Of a DNA stretch of 56,202 nucleotides, positions 25,024-56,202 are shown one piece after another (the stretch's first letter is position 1; the number at the start of each line of letters is the position of its first letter). The DNA is from Girardia tigrina (lineage: Eukaryota). The position numbers and the translations under genes were made by a program. The notes below the pieces were generated by a model. That model saw only the letters and a program-made list of their open reading frames with translations. It was not told where the DNA came from and searched no databases. Where the stretch lies: assembly GCA_001938485.1 (NCBI GenBank), contig MQRK01219542.1, forward strand, positions 1 through 56,202. The letters run 5' to 3'.

Positions 25024-26385
25024 TCATTTGATATTCAAATCGACAACTGAAGATGGCGCTGATTTAATGTTTCGTCTGAGAGAGATTAAAGGATATCGTC
25101 GCAACAGCGATTTCGTTGCTTGAATAAAAGGTCTTGGAGATTGTGTTTTGCCGTTTGGATTCTTATGAAAATTCGAAGTTTTTTCTAACTTTTTCTTTGA
25201 ATATTTTGTAGATTTTAGTTGAGATGTCGAAAGTTCGGCATAGTTTAAACCGTAGTTTTTTATTCTTGTCGAATAACTAAACCCACTTATATTGGGAGGA
25301 GTGGGAGCATCTAAAATTCTGTTCCTTCGTTTTAAATATGGATCATTAAGATGTAATATTGACGTAATGGGGAATGGTGGTGTTATATTTAGTTGACTTT
25401 GGGATGTTTCCATTCTCACATCTGATGATCCACTGAGATCTAGAGCTTCGGTTTGTGGTTCGGAATTAACGACAGTTTGAACTTGAAGAGGTTTACTAAT
25501 CAATAATGGTGATTTAGAAGAATTTTCCTTCATATTCTGAGTTTGTCGGTAACCGTATTTATAAAGAATATCAATTATTTCCGGAGCGTTTTTAAATATT
25601 GGTATAGGAATAGGAATAGGAACAGGAATGTAAAGAGGTCCGGAGACCGGTATTTTAACTGGCTCTGTTGATTTTGCATGTAAATTAAAATTTGTTAACG
25701 AAGGAGGCGGACGAGAATTGAGAAAATCTGCATAATTATTAAAGGTATGATAAAGTGGATTTAGGTTATGTTGTGTTAGATTTGAGATTTGTGGACCCAA
25801 AGATGTATCGGAAGGAAAGATACGTTTAGCCGATTTATGAAACTTGGTGAACGATGAACAACGAGATTTCTTTAAAGGAACAACGGGAACGTTTTTGTTC
25901 GTTTTATTTGTAGGAGTTGGAATTTTATTCCCATTTCCGGATTTTTTCTCATCACTGTGTTTCGATCCAGTTACAGATTCCGAATCAACATCGAGAATAT
26001 TTTCTTCTTTCTTAATTAACAACACATCCGATGTTTCTTTTTCGAAAACCGTTTTTTTGTAATTATTCAAACATATATTATTACAGAAATGCAATTGTTC
26101 AACACTTGCAATACAACCGTTTTCGTTTGATTCAATAGATTCACTTTTATTAGACGTTTTCGATGTCGCGCTATATTCACTTCCGGATTTCGTTCCAGTT
26201 TCGGAAAGAGATACTCTGTCGCACCAGTCACAGGTTTTACCACGCTTGAAAGATGCCCGTCTGGACAACTCGAAACATTTTTCACTACAAAATGATTTCT
26301 TGATTTTGTCATTTCCAGGATAGTTAATGAAAATATTCTCTGAAACTGTGATATCACACCAACCACATATTGGCACTCTAGTCAT
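25024..26385 (-). CDS. SOBP: Sine oculis-binding protein homologue (SOBP), ~453 aa, single coding exon
   Basis: Two FCS-type zinc fingers: CGWC...SFCSEKCFELSRRASFKR and CDWC...LHFCNNICLNNYKKTVFEKET, plus the PVPIPIPIPI proline box characteristic of SOBP. First in-frame ATG at 26385 (the ORF track starts at a non-ATG codon at 26496). Confidence 0.92.
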   Translation of the reverse strand: MTRVPICGWCDITVSENIFINYPGNDKIKKSFCSEKCFELSRRASFKRGKTCDWCDRVSLSETGTKSGSEYSATSKTSNKSESIESNENGCIASVEQLHFCNNICLNNYKKTVFEKETSDVLLIKKEENILDVDSESVTGSKHSDEKKSGNGNKIPTPTNKTNKNVPVVPLKKSRCSSFTKFHKSAKRIFPSDTSLGPQISNLTQHNLNPLYHTFNNYADFLNSRPPPSLTNFNLHAKSTEPVKIPVSGPLYIPVPIPIPIPIFKNAPEIIDILYKYGYRQTQNMKENSSKSPLLISKPLQVQTVVNSEPQTEALDLSGSSDVRMETSQSQLNITPPFPITSILHLNDPYLKRRNRILDAPTPPNISGFSYSTRIKNYGLNYAELSTSQLKSTKYSKKKLEKTSNFHKNPNGKTQSPRPFIQATKSLLRRYPLISLRRNIKSAPSSVVDLNIK

Positions 26386-27109
26386 ATTTATTGAATTATC
26401 TACAAAGAAATTTGATTCAAATATCGAGTTAGAATTATTGAAAAAAGATTTTAATTTGATATTGGAAGAAATAGATAGAGAAAATTTTATGTACAAGTGT
26501 TAAATTTCGAGAGAACTGCCACGTAAGTTGTGTTAATCAATGGACTTGAAAATGGTTTCAATTTACAGTCCTTGATAAAGTATTGGATTACATTGTGAAA
26601 TGAAAACTATACAAACAAATTTCATTTATTTTTTGACAAGAAATAACAGTCTCAACAACATTTCGTCATTGTTGAATAAATGTTTTCAGGAAATCATTCC
26701 TATCACTTGGAATGAAAACGATATATTATGTTTTATTAAGATTGAATTTCAACTCGTTGAGATTTTGCTGTACGAAAAAGAAAAACGAAAATTATCGATT
26801 CTCGAATTTCTCAGTAATTTTAAGAGAAATTACTCTTTTGGCAAAATTTTTTTATCAATTGATTTTATTATTTTAGTATAACATTGAAATTTTATCATTC
26901 CTTCATTAAACATAGGTTACAATGAATGAAAAAGAAATTATATTTCCTGGTCGAATTTTCATTTTCAACATTTTATTCTTTGCTTTTCATAAACAGACGA
27001 AACAAAACGATTATTTAACATATGTTTTTGCTTGATAAAAATAAACAAGAAATAAATATTTGAAATTATTTTAATTTAAAATTTTTGAATGTTTTTTCTT
27101 AATCTAAAA

Positions 27110-34580: not shown

Positions 34581-37236
34581 TTAAGCATCATAAATGACTT
34601 ATTTACTGTGTAAGTACTTTTTATGAAATCAAATACAAAAAACCACAATTAATTAAAAATAAAGTTTCAAGAAAGAATGAAAATATTTTTTTTCAGTTGA
34701 AATTAATTTTGGTTGCTGAGTTTCGTATGAGGATAAAAATTGTTTAAATCTTGTGACAACTGAACATATTAAACATCGGATTATTCAATTTCAAATATTC
34801 TTTTGAATAAAAATAAAAAAATCAATTCTAAAATGAGATATTCTTAGCAAATCAAATTAAATTCTTCCAATTAATTTTTGATTATTATTTAAACTTAATG
34901 AACAAAAATATTTACCAACTCTAAACGAAATGTTAAAAAAAAACACGATGTAAACTAAAATTTGAATTTTTTCAATTCTAAAGTGAAAAATTTAATTAAA
35001 TTTCCATATTAAATTAACATTATTTAAATTTTTAATAATATTTTTACAGAAACTATATTACAAAAAAAATGAATATTTTATACAATTAACGATTTACATT
35101 TCAAAAAATAATTCAAATTCAAAAAAAAAATTAAATATTAAAAAAAAAATTTTCAAACAAAAAACTAAAAAAAAAGTTACCGATTTTTTTAGCGAAAAAA
35201 TTTGGACAAAAAAAATTCGCAGATTACAACAATTCTTGGGTTGAATGATAATGATAATAGTCAAATAAAACAGGCATTAACTTACTTATACCGGTACGGT
35301 ATCTAATATTACTGCAACGTTTTTGGTGCATCCAATCCCGTAGATAGTCTAATCATGCTTCTTGATGAAATGTAATAATCTATAGACTATGGCACGTTGT
35401 GTGTGAAGGAGAAGAGAAATAAATGAACAGGTAATATGAGATAATTGAAATCTGATACCTAAGTGGAAGCTATATGGCTCTCACTCTGTCAGATTAGACT
35501 GCGTCAATGTTGAATAATAAAAATAACTCCACAGTTACTGACTAACGTTTGCGGATGTGTCGTTCTTTAATTAAGGCAACGAAGTTAATGACATTGTGCG
35601 ACGGCGATTATGTTGACAAAAATCATTTGATACTAAGCTTTTTTATACGTTCCCATTCTTGTTGATAAGGTGATTTTTCGAATGGCAGTTTGTTTTTCTG
35701 CCCTCATCATATTGCCTCGAGAAAGTACGGCTTACCGATTATTTTTTTTAAGTATGCGGTATTGCAACAAAAGAACTAATCTCTATTTAAGTAGGTATGC
35801 CAGAATAGACAATTGCATTGCAAAGCCAGATTTTGTTGCCACGGCCCTAACAACACACTACTCTAGCCAGATTTTTTTGTTCCAGCCGTTTATGCATGTC
35901 TGAATGCGACTGTGTGTACATTTAGTTACAAAGCGTATTTGATTTCACAACTCAACTCGCTCATTGCCGCGACTCAGATTTCATGAAGCTTATTTTAGCT
36001 TGCCTGTAATATGATACGTTAAATTTGATTTGTCGTTGGGAGCTTGCTGGATCAATTAAAGCAATACGAATGGCTCTGTTATTACCAAAAATCCTACCAA
36101 TTTTTATAGAATCCTATTGTATTTCTATATCAAATAAATTAGTCTAAATATTAATTATGTTCCTTGTTTTGCAAAAAAATCGTAAATTTTGTTGAACTAA
36201 TATATTTAATTAAAGATATGTTGAAGTACTAATTGAAATCAAAAAGTTATTTGTGATTGTTCTTTGTCATTAGTCGTCTTTAACTGTTCTTTCTGCACTT
36301 GAATAACCTGTTTTATAATTCCGTTTTTTCTAATATGATATTTTGTTTAACATTTCTTGTTAAAATCAATTGTGACGTAATGTAGTAGTTTAATAATAAC
36401 TTATAAGCTAGAGTAGAGCCCGTACCGGGCGGCGATCTTTTCGGGCGACTGCATTCCTTTACGAGCCACGGGTCACAAATCAACGGGCTACGAGCCATTT
36501 CTACACATAACAGTATATGAACATACAAATAAGAAGAATGGTACATTCAAAACACTGAAAACAGAGACTCAGATAATTTTGAAACAAATGTTCCAAGGGG
36601 AGCTACCATCGACTTTGGTGCTAGTCTGAGGCCAACAAATTTTCCTAGTTCTACAAAAATCATTAATTTTAATCCAAACCGCAATGACAGCAGTCTTGTA
36701 TAATACAGGGCTTGTAAAACACAGGACTTTTAATTTGCACATGTGCACTATCGATCGGCACTTTGTCATGGAAATGGATGCCTTTACCAAAAGTGCTAAT
36801 TGATCATTGCATAGTGCCCAAATGTGCTAATGGATACTGCACATGTGACAATCGATAGTGAGAAGTGTGCAGCACATGTAAAAATGTGCAAAGTCGATTA
36901 ATTCAAAATTTTACACTTTTTAAAAGTGCAATTTTTTATATTTTGATTGGCTTAGTGTTTTCGGTGCACATTTTGAATCTCTATCCGACTGTACGAAGAA
37001 CTTTGATATATTGATTTGCTTTTCTTATAATAGTTTTAAGTACAAGGGTAGGAGAGAGTACATAGGTTTTAGAGATCAAATGAAGCAGAATTTTCAAATT
37101 CTGATAGTGCACATGGATAGAAAACCATATATAAAGAATTTGAAAATTTAACATATCAAAATTATGGGCTATTCCTTTATGATAATCTAATAAATTACGA
37201 TTATTATAATAGTTCACTATTGTCACAATACATTTA

Positions 37237-40200
37237 TGTTACGGTCGAGAAACGGAGAGTATAACTACATATGTAAGGAAAGAAATATAAAGGGAAAAGC
37301 TGTTTCAATTATTAAAAATTAATAACTCAAGAAGAAAAATGCCAATACATTTATTATGAAAGAAAATTTTAATAATAAAAGTTCCGTAGATAATCTTGAA
37401 GGCGATCCGACAACGTCCGAAGGTCCGAGAAGAGTCCAAACACTGGAAAAGAAATAACTAATTGAAAATAAATCCCAAAAACTAATTAAGTCACCTACTG
37501 GACGACTTAATTTGACCTCCGTTGTAACTAGGAGGTCAACAGACCCTCCCCGTAGAGTCCTTGAGAAGGCCGACCCCTGGATGCCACCTGTGAGATCCTG
37601 GCGTGTTCACCTGAGAAGATATACAAATTAATTAGAAAAGACAAAGGCCAATTAAAAAAATAAAGACAAAGAGCAATTAAAAAACTTACCATGAGTCAGG
37701 CCCACAAAGCAAAAATATCATCACGCGATGAATAGTCATCGGTGACGTGGTCGCACACCAATTCAAAATTTGCGAGTTTGAGGCGACACACAAACCCAGA
37801 AACCTATAATGAAACGAAATAGTTTAAAATTTTGAAAATTTTCATCGAAACACACCTACCCGAATCGGCCAATCCGCTCACGAGAAAAGCCCAGACACTT
37901 GTCTGGCAGAAGTCAATTAGTCCAATTAAAAATTAATATTGGATGCCTCTCCAGCCCTACAAATACGGTAATCATTTCACCGTTAAGCGCACAAATTTAA
38001 CAACGATAAAAAACACAATTTTAACATAATAATTTTGTACAAACTATTTGCACTACTTTAAATACCTTTTGACGACAACGAGTTCCAGAAGCGTACGTGA
38101 CACGAAGAAAAACAAACAACTGAAGGAAAGAGCACCGAACGAGAAGAAGAAACAGAACGCGAACCGAGATTGAACAAGGACAGCGGAATCCACGAATATC
38201 CCGCTATAACCAACCGACGGTTTACGATAACGCTTCATCCGAGTGACGCGCCGACGAGAAAGAGGACCAAACGACCGAGACATTTGACCGGCTCCCGACT
38301 TGCGAATTTAATTGTAAATTTTAATTTATTATGTTTGCTTGTGGGTCACTAATTTTTAATAAACATATTGAATAATATTTTTGCAGTTTTACATTTCATT
38401 TTACTTTATTTTACTTTTGTTGTTTATCACAGTTATTTAGGAAGTTTATTAATGAATAGTAAATACTTATTTTCCGAGTAAATTAGTCCGTCGCCCGGCC
38501 GCCGTCGCCTTCGACTATGCCCCGAGATAATTTACGATCGAATGCGCAATGGAAGAATGTAGGGAATCATGCAGACCCAATAATTGTTAATGTGATTTCT
38601 ATATCGATGGAATCATTTGTTAGGGAAGGTTGCGTCGAGGCACTTCTCATTAGCGCGGAGCCGCGAGCCCACCCGCATCGGGCAACATAACGTATCGAGA
38701 CAAAATTCTCTTTTCATTATTATGTGTTACATTATAAATATAACTTTATGAGTATGAATTTTATTTTTATACCTTTTAGCAGACCAAGCTGATTTGTTCT
38801 ATGTTGGTTTGGAATCTGACCTAAGATTTAGATTTTAATTTAGGGTTTTGATTTTAGTAATTGGCATGTAATTCGATCGAAAACGAGATTAGAAATTTTT
38901 TTCAGAAGTAATGCGTGATAGGGAGCGGACAAAGTTAGACGCGCGATAAAAAATGAAAAAAAAATTATAGACTTACTGTAGGCTAGAGATTTATTTTACC
39001 TCGCAAAAGGCGTCTCAAAGTTCGGTTTCGAAAGTTAAATTCGAGCGACCTTCGATCAGAAATAATTTACATTATTAAAAGAAGAAAAAAAATTTTTGTC
39101 AGATTTATTGGTTTTGGAGATAAATAATTCCGTAGATAAGAGTTTTTTTAACTTAATGATAGGAATTTAATGAAATACGTAATAATAGTACGAATAATAC
39201 GAATTAATGAAATAAGCAATAATAATAAGAATGATAAGAATTTAATGAAGTTAACGTTTTATAAATAGAAAAGTAAGAACAAAACTTAGCGGAATTTTAT
39301 CGTTATAAAGATTTTATTTTTAACCTTCTATGAATTTTGTATGTTAGAGTGAGACTGTTATCAGTTCTAGCGTTAATTCGAGTAGCGAATTAATTTAGTT
39401 ATGAAATAGGTTATTCTGAAGAATCAATTTAATGGAAGTTTTATTTGATAATAGCCTAATTGTTTGGTTGGTTTATTCATTCTTTTAATTAAAGTTTTTA
39501 ATCTAGTTTAACGAGTCCAAATTAAGTGATAATTTATTCATTTCATGATGACTTTTAATGACAATTATAAGGCGCTAATAATTCTGATAATAACAATTTA
39601 TTTCATAATTAGGATTTTTACGTTGAATCTAATTATTATTCTTTCAAATAGGCATTATTTCGATTCCGCTATCGGTTATACAAAACTTGTAGAATGATAT
39701 TAGAATTAAAATATAGATTAAAATTCAGAATTGTTCCGTGAGTTAGATAATTTGAATTAGATGAGCATTCTGCTTTGGTAACTTAGGCATTTTTTACGAT
39801 AGTTTATGATTGATTTTAATTTAATATATATGAGCTTATATAATATATATAATATATATATATTTTATATATATAATATTTTAATTTAATATATTTAATA
39901 TGTCTGAGCTACATCCTGAATGAGTTACTTTATTAGTAAACTTTCACTGATAGAATAACGGGTTAAGCTAGCGCTGCTTTTCATTCTGTCGATACTATGA
40001 TGAAAACGAATATCATTAGAAAAGTTTGTCCAGGAATACTTCGACACTAATAATAAAAAAAGTGCTTAAATACACGAGCCATTTGAACGAAATTATGGGA
40101 AACCGTATTTAATAGGTAAGGGACTCTACTGACAGTAACGTTTTAAACTATTTTGAACGAATTATCATATTCTACTAAGGGCTAATAATTGATAGATCAA

Positions 40201-41297
40201 TATCGGACCTTTGAACCAATTTAGGTGGCGAATCCTTGGTCGCGAGATAAATCCATGTCATAATAATATTTTACGATACAATGACACTTTCAAGTCCTAA
40301 TATTGATATAGGAATACATAATATACGCTACATACCCCGAACGACGCTTTGCTAGGCAGGGGGCCCATAGCCCATCCGGTCTATATTATAACCCGATGGC
40401 CCTTCAGACTCGGCACTGCCAGGCAGATGTCGAGCGAGAAGAGGCGTCCGACCCATAAATACAGCTAGCAAGTTAGATAGGTATTAAAACGAGTTATAAA
40501 AATATCCTAAATCGAGATTGGGTTGTGGCTGACCCTTAATAGCCACTGGGGGCTCTGAGTCTTTGAACATGTTTATACTCAAATGGGTCGTGACATTTAG
40601 CACACTCTCTGTAAGTATATCGAGAATGTGGTGGATCATTTCCTTGATTGATTAATTAGGAACTCGTTAAATAAAAATAATTTTATTACGATTTTTACAT
40701 AATTTCAATTTTTAATTTTAAATAAATTTTTTTATAAATTTTAGAGTTAAGAATCTTTTAAAATAAAAGAACATGAATTACTACCGTTAAAGCATACTAC
40801 CCAATTTTTAATTTTATTCAATTAAGTAAAGTTTTTATTTTTTATATCTTTTCGATAAAATGTTATTCAGCAAAAATGTCTTTATTAAATGTCTTTAATA
40901 GAATGTCTTAATTTAGTGGAATAAATTTTTTTATATCTAGGGCATAATATCGTTCGGCTAATTGGGGTGATATGATTCCGAATCATTGTTCCCTATAAAA
41001 GGATGAATGAGCAGATCACGTGAAATCTAATCAATATATCAACAAACGGCTAATTTACCCTTTTTAATATATAACTAACAAATAAAATTAAAATATAGCA
41101 TTAGATAATAGTATTTAATATGATATGTAATACGATTACAATAAAACTAACAGGAGTAAAACGAAGGTATAATAATAACAAATTACAGAGCATGAAATCA
41201 GAATATGAGGGGGTATAACTAATACAATTAATTTACTTTAATCATATTCAGAAAAAATATCATAATAAATTGATACGGATATAAATATTTCGTAATA
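37237..41297 (-). mobile_element. Candidate giant (~4.06 kb) solo LTR or LTR-like insertion
   Basis: Termini TGTTACG...CGTAATA (one mismatch from an inverted repeat); CpG-rich islands unlike the flanks; minus-strand AATAAA at 37350-37355 near the left end; 12-bp direct repeat TATTGTCACAAT at 37218-37229 and 41296-41307; no long ORF. Confidence 0.55.
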
Positions 41298-42019
41298 TTG
41301 TCACAATGGAAGCTGGTTGTATGTATTTTTTTACACAAATTCTAGAAAATATCGACTGTTGATAATGATGTCTTGGTAATAATTAAAAATTGTTGGTCAA
41401 CAATGAATCGATAATAAAAAAACTTTTTATATTCAAAAATAAAGCATTGTCAAAAAATGCATTCATAAATAAACTAAATAATTTATTTAATGATTTTTAA
41501 TTTAAAATTCAAATATCATATTACTAAGGGCCATTTGAATTATTAAATTCATTATTAATTAATAACTTAATGTTCATAATAATAAATAATTTATCGTAAG
41601 TAAAAAAACCAAATATAATAATTTGATACGAATAAAAAAATATACATACTTAATATAAAAAAATAGTTGTTGAAATATTACATTCCCATTTGAAGAATGC
41701 TGGTACCAAGCACTTGACGTGGTCGCCATTGAACGATTTTGCATATTAAAAGACGAATTATTGAAAATAATATTTATTAACCAAAAATTAAAATCTGCGC
41801 ATCAAATAATTAATTAATTGATTGATTTAAACAATATCAGGAGTTTATTATATTCAGAATCCTTTAAATAACTTGATATATATAAAATATTTAGTTTAAT
41901 TTATAAATACTCATATATTATTTATACTCATAAAATATATATTCTTGATTCAACTTTGTAGGATTAATTAAAAAATAATTTGGCATTACAATAATTTATG
42001 TTGCACTTTAAACAATATA

Positions 42020-43925
42020 TGGACGATAAACGGTTTACAGCACGAAAAAATCATAAGAATTTGATATAAATGAAAATATCATCAAAACCAATAACTCCTC
42101 AATTTCAGCTGGATAACATGGCAGAGTTCGATTTCAAGCTGGAATACCAAAAGGTGAGAATCGTAGGAATGGAGTATTATGATTATGTGAGGAATGTTCG
42201 CAGTACCGAATTAAGCATGAAGATCTAAAAAGTGAAAGCCAAAGTGAAACATATTAATTCGGTTACGATTCAATCAACGTTGACTTGGATCAAAGAGGAA
42301 CAGGACAAATGCGAAGATTTTGGGAAATGGAAAAGAACACTAGAAAAGAGTCGCGAGGATCAATACCCAGGGTCTAGGGATTTAGGACAAGGAGGAGGGT
42401 TTGGTTGTAAAAAAGGATTAGTTGGGATTTTAGAGGGTTATTATATTTTACCATTAGTTCCAAAAAGTATAAGAAAAGAATTTTGGAAAAGAATTTGTGT
42501 CATTTGGGTATAAAAAAACGAAACGCTATATAATGCATCATATTTATGTTCCAGAATTGGCAAAGGAAGTGAAAAATTAATTGGTAAATGTGACGAAATC
42601 CGTCGTAGGAAGGCATTAACAGAGAAAACCAATTAAATGTGATGATTTTTTAAAACAATTGTTGATATACAGTCTGGTACAAAAGTTTGTGAACGCTGAC
42701 GATTTGTAAGTGCTGGGACAGCCTATTAAGAAGTTGCACTGCAGTAACATGAGGGGTTCTTTTAGCCTCCTGTAAATTTTTTCTGTCGTCCCTTTGACTG
42801 GTTGACATTGGACAACCAGATCGAGATCTTGAACATGAGGAACAAGTTGTAGCTATTTGTCCATAAGAAACTCCGTGCTTCTGCAATGCCAAAACTGCTG
42901 CACGCTGTTCTGTTGTTAGCTCCTTGCCGCGGACAGGCATGATTCTAAAATAATGACAATTTATAACTTGAAAAGTAATAAAAATAAAATATGCATTTAA
43001 TCATTTAAATGGTTTATGTATAATTAACAAGGAATACACGAACATGCAGTGCAATAACAAAAAGCAGTATAGAAACAAGCGTTCACAAACTTTTGCACCT
43101 GACTGTATATTGCTTTCATTGGAAATAGAAATTCAAACTATCCGTATCTGTTAGTGATAGTTGATCAATTCTCCAAGCTAGTGAATTTAACGAAAATCAA
43201 AACAAAATCCGAAAATATGGAATTCGATGTATTCTAGTTTAATGGATTTATATATTTGGTAAACCAAAACGAATTTTAACAGATAATGTTACGTGTTTTA
43301 CGGGTACGAAGTTCAAGGAATTCTGTCAAAAACATGGGATTGAACATCGATGTAGTAGTCTATTTCAGCATCAATCCAATGGACTCACAGAACGATGTAT
43401 TCGGGCAGTGAGAGATATGGTAGTGACAACCAATTGGGAAGGTTAAACTGATGGTGGGAAATAATTGATTGAGTTATAATTAATTAAATAATAATTAATT
43501 TAATTTAATAATTAATTTAATTGAGTTTTCGCTGAATGCGACGGTGCAAAGTACAACCGGATTTTCTAAGTTTGAAATTATTTTTAAACGTAAAATAAAT
43601 TTGCACGTGGCAGGAGGAGTGACACTTATGGAAAATGAGGATATTAAAGAGATGATGAAAGAAAATGCGGAAAGTGCAGCAAACCATATGGAACATTGGA
43701 AGAGAGAAAAGAGAACAAAGAGAAATTTCGAAGATGCTCAGCAGTTTACGGTAAAAATAGAGCCTCAAAAACAAAAAAAAGATACCTTCCGATTTGAAGG
43801 CCCATTTAAAATTTTAAAATATATCACCTAATCAGCTGTAGTTACAGAATCTATCAGATGGTAGAAGAATACGAAGACGTATGGCTCAAGAAGATATCAA
43901 CCTCGAATGTCAGAGGGAGAAGTTA
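42020..43925 (+). mobile_element. Decayed Ty3/Gypsy pol (RNase H end and integrase) with polypurine tract
   Basis: VIVDQFSKLV, WIYIFGKPKRILTDN, QHQSNGLTERCIR, RFEGPFKI; purine tract AGAGGGAGAAG at 43912-43922; interrupted by a Tc1 element. Confidence 0.85.
42670..43105 (-). mobile_element. Internally deleted Tc1 element inserted in the Gypsy integrase
   Basis: TIRs CAGTCTGGTACAAAAGTTTGTGAACGCT / AGCGTTCACAAACTTTTGCACCTGACTG, TA TSDs; paired-like N-terminus MPVRGKELTTEQRAAVLAL...SYGQIA. Confidence 0.92.
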
Positions 43926-44379
43926 TGGAAATATTAATTAAGCATTATTTATTAAAAAGGTTTGTTTAAATTAACTCTTGTTGTGATATTAATAAAATTT
44001 GAATTTTTGAATTATTCTAATGGATTCGATTATCTTAATTAAGCCATACAGTATTTCCGAAAAAATCTAAAAAAAGTAATATATATATATATAAAACGTA
44101 TTAAGATCGGCTGGTATATGCATAAAGTATACGCAATGTACAACCAAAACAGCAACCCATTACGTTCTGAGATTCGTTTATTTCCCATTCTACTTCATGT
44201 ACATCATCGAGCACGAATCCATCATAAGGGAACCTAGTGGTACCTAATTTAAGTAATTCTTCTTTTCAGTTACATACAGAGGTTGATCGAAGTGGGAAAA
44301 CTAAAGTTCTTCTTCCCAATGCCCGATTTATTCACAAACACAATTTCTGGTGACCAAAAAAAATTCAACTGAAAGCGCC

Positions 44380-53043: not shown

Positions 53044-55164
53044 ATATATTTAATGCTTATAAAAAAATGAAAATAAATTGTTCGGATAGAAACAATTTTA
53101 ACAATATGGCAGAAGATGTACACAAAGATGAAATTAAATTTTGTTGTGTCAATTGAACTCTACAATTAAAATTTAAATTTCGACCCAATGACGAGATTTA
53201 AAATTCATATGATGTATGACCATCCTGTCGAGACGCACACGGCTCCAGGAACTCTTGGGAAAGATGGCTGCCCAAAATGATTTTTAGAAAAGTCCGTATC
53301 GGTAATAGTTATATTATTCAACGTTTTCTAGCGATTGTTTCACGATAGGGAATTCGTGTCTTCTTGAGGCACACAAATAAATAAAAGGACTTTGAGCTTT
53401 TTATTAAACGATAAAGACAGTAATATCGTATAATATATTTAATAAAAGTATCTGTATCGATTTAGTATAAAATAAAAAAGAAAATAGACGATGAATTGCA
53501 CAAAAAACGAAATTGAGACAAAATGATGTTTTCAAATAATAAAAATAATTTCAAAATATAAAATTCTGACTAAATAAATGGTTTCAAATGATGGTCAAAA
53601 TCTTAAATTAAAATGATAAAAATCTCAATAAAAGATTGTATGAATATAAACATTTTCATAGACATTAATATTATAATTAGATGGTTCAAATGCAAATCTA
53701 AAGAATTTACAAAAAAACTTTGGAAAATTAATTAAATAAATGATGCCCATACTAACTTCATTAAACACTCAGTGAAAGTTTCTTAATGTAGCATTATTAG
53801 ATTCATCAAACAGCGTTTTTTTTAAGATTATGGTTAATTTAAACAAACTTATTTAAATTGAAATTTTTTTATTAAAAAACGATTATTTGTTTATAATATT
53901 TTAGTGACATATTTATTTGCATATAAAATTATCCGTCCTAAATGCAATTAACTCTTTATCGATTAAAGTTTAATAATTCGTATTAAATTAATGAAACTTA
54001 TTTATATGGAAAAGACAAATCAGTGAATTATTCTTATATTTACCAATATAATTAGTCACTGTATATTATGTAAATATTTTTGTCTATAAGTTCCATAATT
54101 CTTCCAGTAACAAACAAAGATTATTATTCTTAGATTTTCTTTCTATTTGAGAATTTTAAATTAAGATTTTTTCATTGTAAATTCAAAATTTTCAAATTAA
54201 AATAATATTTTTCTTTTCGATTTTGTGTATTGATTTTAAATCTCATTTATAGTTGGATACTCAAAATATATTGGAGGTTTTTAATGTAGATAGAATTTTT
54301 AAATTTGAAATTTTGGATTTTCATATTATTCTTTAATGATATTTTTATCTTTAAATGATAATTTCGTATAAATTTGGTTGTTTTAATTTTACAGTTAAAC
54401 GATAAAGATTTCTATTGAGTAAATTCTGCATTCATGCATTAATCGCTGCATTTATCATTTAAATATTTTTATTTATCGGCCATGTATATTTTATAAAATT
54501 CTTATCAGAGTTAATATTTACCTGAAAATATATATTTTTTAATATATATTCAATTTCAACAAAAGTAAATTCGACAAGATAAAAGCAATGCAGTTAGAAT
54601 AGTGTACCCATGTAGATAAAGGTGAATCTCTCAAAGATTAATTCTGGATTCCATCTTATCAAGACTGGTTCAACAACTACAAAACTGTTTGTGCGAAAAA
54701 ACTGCATATGGTTATCCTAGTTGCACAGATTTCTGGCGTGTACGCATTAGAAGGGATTAGAAGTATATATCCCCCCGAAGAAATTTAAATTTCGATCTTT
54801 ATTAACCTCTTTGGATTTCTATTTTAAATATTACAAATGGGAAGCAGGACATTTCAACATTGAAAATTTTTTTGCAGATTAAAAGCTTACGATTTAAGGA
54901 AATTACAATTACAATAGTGGTAAATGAAATGCAATTTTAATGCAAACTAAAAATTGGAGAATTGAACAATGAATTATAAATAATACAAGCACATGAGCAA
55001 GTATAATTTGAAATAGAATATAGATATGATAAAANNNNNNNNNNNNNNNNNNNNNNNNNNNNNNNNNNNNNNNNNNNNNNNNNNNNNNNNNNNNNNNNNN
55101 NNNNNNNNNNNNNNNNNNNNNNNNNNNNNNNNNNNNNNNNNNNNNNNNNNNNNNNNNNNNNNNN

Positions 55165-55233
55165 TGGTAGAGCGGAGGACTGTAGTGTATTGCGGTGATC
55201 CTTAGGTCGGTGGTTCAAATCCGCCTCATCGGA
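55165..55233 (+). tRNA. trnY: tRNA-Tyr(GTA) with intron, 5' part hidden in an N gap
   Basis: Identical to the 3' 69 nt of the complete copy; followed by a T run. Confidence 0.9.
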
Positions 55234-55572
55234 ATTTTTTTCGACATTGAAAATTTTTTTGCAGATTAAAAGCTTACGATTTAAAGAAATTACAATTACA
55301 ATAGTCGAAAAAGAATTCGGGGAATCACTAATATCCGTAAATCGTAAAATTGATAATGAGATTTTAAATCTGTTTTTTAACAACCTTAACATGCCCTCCG
55401 ATCACTTCTTCCTTGACAGCACANNNNNNNNNNNNNNNNNNNNNNNNNNNNNNNNNNNNNNNNNNNNNNNNNNTGGAGAATTGAACAATGAATTATAAAT
55501 AATACAAGCACATGAGCAAGTATAATTTGAAATAGAATATAGATATGATAAAAGTGATCAATGTAATCACTA

Positions 55573-55587
55573 CCGATGATAGCTCAG
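55573..55587 (+). pseudogene. Truncated 5' fragment of tRNA-Tyr
   Basis: CCGATGATAGCTCAG followed by a re-start of the upstream spacer (local duplication or assembly artefact). Confidence 0.6.
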
Positions 55588-55667
55588 CACATAATAATAC
55601 AAGCACATGAGCAAGTATAATTTGAAATAGAATATAGATATGATAAAAGTGATCAATGTAATCACTA

Positions 55668-55752
55668 CCGATGATAGCTCAGTTGGTAGAGCGGAGGACT
55701 GTAGTGTATTGCGGTGATCCTTAGGTCGGTGGTTCAAATCCGCCTCATCGGA
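55668..55752 (+). tRNA. trnY: tRNA-Tyr(GTA) with a 12-nt intron (55705-55716)
   Basis: Acceptor stem CCGATGA/TCATCGG+A; D arm GCTC/GAGC; anticodon stem GAGGA/TCCTT with GTA at 55701-55703; T arm GGTGG-TTCAAAT-CCGCC; 73 nt after splicing at 37/38. Confidence 0.98.
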
Positions 55753-55754
55753 AG

Positions 55755-55760
55755 TTTTTT
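55755..55760 (+). terminator. RNA polymerase III terminator
   Basis: T6 run 2 nt downstream of the tRNA discriminator base. Confidence 0.85.
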
Positions 55761-56202
55761 CGACATTGAAAATTTTTTTGCAGATTAAAAGCTTACGATT
55801 TAAGGAAATTACAATGACAATAGTGGTAAATGAAATGCAATTTTAATNNNNNNNNNNNNNNNNNNNNNNNNNNNNNNNNNNNNNNNNNNNNNNNNNNNNN
55901 NNNNNNNNNNNNNNNNNNNNNNNNNNNNNNNNNNNNNNNNNNNNNNNNNNNNNNNNNNNNNNNNNNNNNNNNNNNNNNNNNNNNNNNNNNNNNNNNNNNN
56001 NNNNNNNNNNNNNNNNNNNNNNNNNNNNNNNNNNNNNNNNNNNNNNNNNNNNNNNNNNNNNNNNNNNNNNNNNNNNNNNNTTTTTTCGACATTGAAAATT
56101 TTTTTGCAGATTAAAAGCTTACGATTTAAGGAAATTACAATGACAATAGTGGTAAATGAAATGCAATTTTAATGCAAACTAAAAATTGGAGAATTGAACA
56201 AT

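Follow-up and report, generated by a model that had tools for sequence, protein, structure and literature searches.

The closest described system for the locus analysed here is the Burro/GYPSM1 group of giant Gypsy elements of dugesiid planarians. According to the excerpts available of PMC6431247, these elements have an interior of about 24 kb, a total length of about 29 kb and thousands of copies. A single, very long polyprotein comprises Gag, CCHC knuckles, a ubiquitin/SUMO-like domain, an in-frame fusion glycoprotein, protease (PR), dUTPase, reverse transcriptase (RT), RNase H (RH) and integrase (IN), and upstream accessory ORFs are present. The family described below shares all of these features, and two CCHC knuckles are found here as in the D. 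tigrina Burro element (PMC6431247, same excerpts); the MATH, BIR and ankyrin domains of Burro, in contrast, go undetected here by Pfam. Burro elements of planarians are active and tissue-specific, and PIWI keeps them in check, as given in part of PMC8532177, and further context on expression and silencing is found in portions of PMC10558129, PMC11410931 and 10.64898/2026.01.28.702291. Multi-kilobase long terminal repeats (LTRs) like those of this family are also carried by the plant element Ogre. LTRs are ordinarily non-coding, and recombination between the two LTRs of an element leaves a single LTR with an intact target-site duplication (TSD), as stated in the excerpts available of PMC4667437.

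The window is a 56,202-nt stretch of contig MQRK01219542.1 from Girardia tigrina, and it contains a solo LTR on the plus strand (Table 1). Its boundaries differ from those first drawn in a reading of the letters (the sequence-only reading), which had placed an LTR-like insertion of about 4 kb at 37237-41297. The genome assembly searched comprises 1.43 Gb and is AT-rich and fragmented. The first 300 bp of the LTR have 45 matches in it, and 14 other loci, with 13 distinct and unrelated flanks, begin exactly at base 37237, which confirms the left terminus TGTTACG. The right terminus had to be moved. In 20 left-part copies fetched with up to 10 kb, similarity to the window stops at 40595, at GGGTCGTGACA, and among 29 further copies of the 3′ block (20 distinct flanks) none aligns past 40620. 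Copies matching 40998-41297 continue through 41297, several of them to 41682, and position 41297 falls inside an unrelated 689-bp repeat (40994-41682). A right end at 41682 was rejected on account of the left-part copies stopping at 40595.

Table 1 Coordinates of the LTR and of the features in and around it (positions in the window).
Feature	Position	Strand	Basis
Solo LTR, 3,359 bp, TGTTACG...CGTGACA	37237..40595	+	Common ends in copies; empty-site joint; for the polarity, position of primer site and purine tract in relatives of the LTR
Left target-site duplication TTTA	37233..37236	.	Sequence
Right target-site duplication TTTA	40596..40599	.	Sequence
Likely antisense intron I1 (GT..AG, 52 nt)	37443..37494	-	X3 joint at 37441 and the letters between its sides
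Likely antisense intron I2 (GTAAGT..CAG)	37611..37689	-	CT..AC joint in X3
Likely antisense intron I3 (GTAGGT..TAG, 56 nt)	37804..37859	-	CT..AC joint in X3
Predicted 3′ splice acceptor (pyrimidine run and AG), 38 nt before ORF ATG	38465..38478	+	Present in 44/53 copies
57-aa ORF within LTR	38517..38690	+	150 scored matches; dN/dS 0.36; third-position variability; LTR context, on the right strand, of 46/49 fetched loci
Conserved terminal 260-bp block, likely R-U5	40335..40595	+	Common to all subfamilies; directly precedes primer site in 5′ LTRs

The redrawn element has TG...CA ends with short inverted termini, as a solo LTR should. It is a single LTR within a TSD in the 4-6-bp range, and it has an empty-site counterpart: contigs of two DNA runs from one study (X1 and X2) contain a joint from which 3,363 bp are missing, the length of the LTR plus one TSD. 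This empty site may be allelic or may come from a paralogous copy of the flank, and the flank may be a low-copy repeat. A perfect 4-bp TSD is present in six of the eight loci having both ends, the window included, and 4-bp TSDs are also seen at locus L270 and at the full-length copy C227859; L094 has both ends and no TSD, and L100, which spans a 4-kb gap, has no TSD. The nearest copies of the window LTR diverge from it by 4-9%. The 12-bp direct repeat pointed out earlier in the flanks does exist (37218-37229 and 41296-41307), and it is a chance repeat, not a TSD. Its right copy sits within the 40994-41682 repeat, whose other copies read differently there, and a word of at least 12 bases was common to a random 40-nt window and the next 4.46 kb in 6% of 400 trials. 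Because the true 4-bp TSD was found and the 12-bp repeat is due to chance, the insertion needs no non-integrase route of the kind that had been suggested from the offset repeat.

The polarity of the LTR can be read from what adjoins its ends elsewhere in the genome. Exact matches to the right-end motif number 2,987 (control, 66), and those to the left-end motif 1,499 (control, 57). Among the first 100 right ends listed, 13 are directly followed by TGGGGGCTCAGYCGG. This primer site is an 18-nt sequence exactly complementary to the 3′ terminus of host tRNA-Pro(TGG) after addition of CCA. The purine tract CCCGGAGGAA stands directly before the left end in 3 of the first 100 left ends listed. When both were searched in the minus orientation, the purine tract gave 10 matches with no flank in common beyond duplicates, and the primer site gave 172 matches, of which the 30 viewed had no common interior. 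Since the primer site follows plus-strand right ends and nothing is shared in the opposite orientation, the polarity of the LTR is plus, opposite to the minus-strand U3-R-U5-like order proposed before. The 13% share of primer sites, taken from a listing biased to short contigs, corresponds to about six solo LTRs for each element that has an interior.

These observations bear on the idea of a 4.06-kb element of minus polarity, inserted without integrase and flanked by a 12-bp duplication. The 12-mer and the terminal CGTAATA word on which it was built are indeed there. We nevertheless give it next to no credence, as copies run through 41297, the true end, the 4-bp TSD and the empty site lie at 40595, the primer site is on the plus side, and no primer site or purine tract is held in common in the minus orientation. 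The differing right boundary of the copies is the very outcome that the sequence-only reading had named as refuting it. Two minus-strand signals had also been listed. AATAAA is present at 37350-37355 and is kept in 22 of 42 left ends, and TATAAAA is present at about 38765-38771 at chance frequency (3 seen, 1.8 expected) and is common to only the closest of eight other LTRs. The islands described as CpG-rich are GC- and CpG-rich, with a CpG o/e of 1.5 against 1.12 for the window.

Copies with an interior identify the element to which the LTR belongs. The route to them led from the purine-tract copy C253802 to a protease-dUTPase frame and from there to 152 matches among 2,827 candidates. Contig C227859 holds a paired copy, 28,717 bp long; its LTRs are 97-99.7% alike, and it has a TSD (TAGT), the purine tract and the primer site matching tRNA-Pro, so that the paired direct repeats expected of the parent of a solo LTR are present. 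Its interior measures 23,716 bp and its frames are interrupted; both lengths, which include N gaps, agree with the Burro size of an interior above 20 kb and a total near 30 kb. Another contig, C249044, has a single frame of 4,142 aa, including 183 X at assembly gaps, in the order Gag capsid, two CCHC, ubiquitin-like, viral fusion glycoprotein, PR, dUTPase, RT, RH and IN. The fusion glycoprotein, in frame between gag and pol, matches PF24664 with an E value of 9e-84, and the ubiquitin-like and dUTPase matches are under the Pfam cut-off. The PR-RT-RH-IN order of Ty3/Gypsy is found in both contigs, and the combination of one giant polyprotein with an in-frame fusion glycoprotein, a SUMO/ubiquitin-like domain and dUTPase is that of Burro. 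BCL2-like, MATH, BIR, ankyrin and Smc accessory motifs have no Pfam match in the interior. Immediately upstream of the fusion protein there is a GGW motif, which we take to be reminiscent of BCL2 BH2.

The window LTR is 71-76% identical to the LTRs of the pol-bearing copies in the terminal 260 bp, 90% identical in the terminal block to C250646, which carries the primer site and leader, and 73% identical over about 790 bp to C253802. The subfamily of the window is thus connected to gag-pol via the 260-bp block and the two bridging copies, and was never seen attached to it directly. These comparisons link the LTR family to an element of roughly 29 kb having the Burro domain order, in support of the earlier proposal of a solo LTR from a giant Burro-type Gypsy element. 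The element family is a known one, and its interior matches the published Burro description in architecture, the level at which the two were compared. Ginger-type DNA transposons also have TGT...ACA ends and a 4-bp TSD, and the termini and TSD length found here would fit a non-autonomous member of that group. We consider such an origin very improbable, as the terminal inverted repeat extends over no more than 7-10 imperfect bases where a long one would be expected, and the family is found as paired direct repeats around a primer site, gag-pol and a purine tract.

Within the LTR, the plus strand is rich in A over the left 900 bp and rich in G further right, with the flip near 38150-38450. The same mid-LTR flip in strand skew is seen in the eight of nine LTRs that are not N-masked there. 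The terminal block has 2,337 candidates in the genome, with 71-95% identity across subfamilies and modest covariation (4 of 47 pairs). Its conservation across subfamilies, its adjacency to the primer site and the covariation suggest that these 260 bp are likely R-U5, and we infer that the remaining 3.1 kb form a long U3.

The LTR had been regarded as devoid of coding capacity, a view that a conserved plus-strand ORF of 57 codons contradicts. When nine LTRs were aligned, the ATG was found at the same place in every ungapped copy, where it opens a frame with a conserved protein pattern. A tblastn search of the genome returned 1,131 candidates, of which 150 were scored and 10 of these contain stops; decayed copies under the threshold of such a search, by which most of the ORF copies were located, would be missed. 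In close pairs within a subfamily, differences are spread evenly over the codon positions (0.34/0.32/0.34), and in pairs taken from different subfamilies third positions differ in about half of the cases. In between-subfamily pairs, with one spurious row included, dN/dS is 0.22-0.26 in the ORF frame and near 1 in the other frames except the mirror antisense frame. For nine disjoint pairs, which are not phylogenetically independent and exclude the spurious row L241 and the start-less copy L092, dN/dS is 0.36 (range 0.16-0.82, Fisher p about 1e-15). Column variability by codon position is 0.20/0.16/0.35 in 48 copies, a pattern reached by 0 of 2,000 permutations, and no three-base periodicity is present in seven other LTR segments, neighbouring exons and introns among them. 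These codon patterns show that purifying selection acts on the ORF when subfamilies are compared and that copies of one subfamily decay neutrally, as would be expected of a gene that is kept by active lineages and decays after insertion.

We also weighed the possibility that the LTR is non-coding and that the ORF pattern arises from conserved promoter or RNA elements combined with ascertainment by protein search. The recovery of most copies by tblastn would fit this explanation, as would the low dN/dS of the mirror antisense frame (0.47) and the lack of relatives of the ORF in the databases searched. We regard it as improbable, given the three-base periodicity that is confined to the ORF among the segments compared. 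In addition, stops interrupt the mirror frame in 30 of 32 rows and the ORF frame in 6 of 32 (one spurious row included), and the ORF is intact in 15 of the 25 copies that were reached without an ORF search. The ATG is invariant in 34 intact aligned copies of 23-88% identity, which were picked for having a start and an open frame. The ORF likely encodes a predicted accessory micro-protein, whose conserved core in the 34 intact members is a hydrophobic stretch followed by S-x-x-x-E-x-F. No match to it was found in Pfam, PDB or the protein database searched, no relative appeared among 291 candidates (lengths 29-135) or in metagenome contigs, searches in which remote relatives could escape, and in the interior of the element nothing is similar beyond an E value of 0.07. 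Its nearest neighbours by Atlas features are histone-fold proteins (TAF13, CENP-S, TAF9 and TAF11, 0.76-0.82), which we treat as a lead only. A histone-fold mimic was tried and set aside: there is no PDB match at E 10 and no such Pfam match at E 1 in the 34 members, and the structure model is of low confidence (pLDDT 63) with one helix in place of a three-helix fold.

The left part of the LTR shows signs of transcription in the opposite direction. The chain of minus-strand introns in the sequence-only reading was partly borne out in that three GT-AG introns of 52-79 nt are skipped in contigs of one probable RNA sample, and its exons look non-coding. The joints come from a single sample (X3, whose RNA label is a guess), with one contig each and a short side of 28-30 nt. 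None of the runs taken as RNA is recorded as such; runs X6 and X12 yielded almost nothing, and the missing coverage of 38673-40124 in X4, X5 and X12 is given no weight here. The X3 joints are absent from the 15 DNA-run joints shown, which leave 35 further joints aside, and none of the 49 other genomic copies is without the three introns. The donor of I1 is kept in 41 of 49 copies and its acceptor in 35 of 49; the donor of I2 is kept in 44 of 48 copies, and a second I2 acceptor, found in 40 of the 49 other copies, has been lost from the window copy by a deletion; for I3, the donor is kept in 29 of 49 copies and the acceptor in 32 of 48. Donor conservation is only modestly above the intron backgrounds of 0.68 (I1), 0.78 (I2) and 0.49 (I3), and diverged subfamilies keep variant splice sites. 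Coding by the antisense exons was rejected, as they have no periodicity, contain stops in most copies and change in length mostly by amounts that are not multiples of three. Sub-threshold Rfam matches, to a Y RNA at 37418-37525 and to a snoRNA, were taken as chance. The minus-strand splice signals are probably real. They would be those of an antisense RNA transcribed from the left part of the LTR and not those of the genomic RNA. We slightly favour the view that this part of the LTR gives rise to a spliced, non-coding antisense RNA.

On the plus strand, an acceptor-like signal stands upstream of the ORF far more often (Table 1) than in two control windows, where it was found in 12 of 53 and 8 of 53 copies. 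Because this pyrimidine run and AG are kept upstream of the ATG, the ORF mRNA is likely spliced. Splicing at this acceptor was seen in no run, one X4 contig crosses 38042-38594 unspliced there, and no conserved donor position was found within 300 nt upstream. These observations could be explained in another way, in which solo LTR and ORF are the same and expression of the ORF takes place solely in full-length elements, from their 3′ LTR, through splicing from an upstream donor as in nef or sag, the solo copies, that of the window included, being silent passengers. This would account for a conserved acceptor about 40 nt before the ATG and no conserved donor within reach, and the even spread of within-subfamily differences, by which inserted copies decay neutrally, is in line with it. 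On the other hand, both the flip in strand skew and the spliced contigs from the antisense strand point to a promoter that lies in the LTR itself, and planarian trans-splicing could also account for an acceptor without a donor. We see expression from the 3′ LTR alone as the main alternative, of roughly one chance in three.

Our preferred reading, held with good confidence, is that the window contains a solo LTR from an integrase-inserted giant Burro-type Gypsy element with a selected 57-codon ORF that likely encodes an accessory micro-protein. In this mechanism, integrase inserted an element of roughly 30 kb with a 4-bp TSD, and recombination between its LTRs then likely left a single LTR with the TSD intact. 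A divergent promoter in U3, near 38150-38450, may drive transcription both ways, rightwards of a spliced plus-strand mRNA that encodes the micro-protein and leftwards of a spliced non-coding antisense RNA, an expression route to which we give an even chance. The micro-protein may serve the transcription or regulation of the element itself, or its defence against PIWI silencing; this is our best guess on function, somewhat short of even odds. A broader and rather unlikely extension would treat Burro LTRs as two-gene units, with the protein as an anti-silencing or chromatin factor and the RNA giving rise to antisense small RNAs, so that the thousands of solo LTRs would form a dispersed, partly active gene family that tunes silencing.

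The element family and its ordinary mode of insertion are already known, and what is apparently undescribed is the selected micro-ORF in the LTR, together with a probable spliced antisense RNA. The Burro account in section 7 of PMC6431247, as excerpted, is silent on ORFs or antisense transcripts in the LTR, and no account of either in Burro was found in the literature searched, a scope that leaves aside the original Burro paper and Repbase. Each solo LTR preserves a gene that is situated within the LTR, and candidate copies here number more than a thousand. With a selected small protein and an antisense RNA that is spliced, the LTR would offer direct, testable handles on the self-regulation of giant elements and on their interplay with silencing, and the ORF would double as a marker that can be aligned in studies of LTR evolution. 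Plant LTR retrotransposons such as Grande, RIRE2 and Retand likewise carry conserved additional ORFs that have no known origin or function; these differ in that they sit in the interior of the element, for the most part in the stretch that separates pol from the 3′ LTR (PMC7264820, in the excerpts available). The sag gene of MMTV, as described in the available parts of PMC4667437, offers a parallel in position: it lies inside the LTR, in U3, is carried by solo LTRs, and has dN/dS below 1 between lineages with neutral change after insertion. It differs in being a superantigen gene of a betaretrovirus, whereas a 57-aa protein with no sign of homology to it is predicted here in a Gypsy LTR, and the resemblance of the LTR ORF to sag is one of layout only.

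Near the 3' end of the solo LTR (37237-40595, plus strand), ~40 nt inside the terminus, the first 9 nt of the primer site recur at 40553-40561, and this short match is kept in 17 of 18 aligned LTR copies. It may be a second contact for the tRNA.

To the right of the LTR lies a separate 689-bp repeat, accompanied in the window by a 5-bp duplication, TTCCC. Two contigs of the assembly (C212422 and C112579) carry two right ends of this repeat in inverted orientation. The repeat is probably a small solo LTR of a different family. Decayed Gypsy-like pol pieces follow on the plus strand at 42000-43950, with no link to the 37237-40595 LTR; they include an integrase-core-like frame (43243-43446, recognised by eye) and are interrupted by a minus-strand Tc1-like fragment (42650-43000). 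Close to the left end of the LTR, a short repeat at 36700-37140 is present in very high copy number (summed contig depth ~3e5). Farther away, ~11 kb from the LTR, there is a host frame of 491 aa (25024-26499, minus strand) with a weak match to sine oculis-binding protein (E 7e-4, below the cut-off), and the window ends in ~520-bp tandem repeats that include a tRNA-like sequence and are interrupted by gaps (54852-56202).

Features of the LTR surroundings and of family copies
Feature	Location	Description
Separate repeat	window 40994-41682	689 bp; minus strand reads TGTAAT...TTATA; sharp ends
Tandem short ORFs	C227859:51877-57625; C249044:10769-16532	7 or 8, between primer site and gag
Deleted copy	C253802:30970-33659	lacks ~5.4 kb (RT, RNase H, integrase)
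Tandem arrangement	C214077:4-23646	one LTR common to two internal regions
Exonuclease-like frames	L181:101-610 (= C250646:10101-10610); C250646 near 22000	downstream of truncated element

The short pre-gag ORFs encode 105-166 aa rich in charged residues, and most are common to the paired full-length copy (C227859) and the copy with the gag-pol frame (C249044). A Pfam scan of five of them gave nothing above the cut-off.

In the purine-tract copy, C253802, the protease-dUTPase adjoins the 3' ORF, and this copy is a non-autonomous derivative. Around the common LTR of C214077, the order is purine tract, LTR and primer site; of the two interiors, the first has either been shortened or contains gaps. 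The frames in C250646, the copy with primer site and leader, gave no Pfam match above the cut-off and are absent from the full-length copies; their motif is reminiscent of a DEDDh exonuclease.
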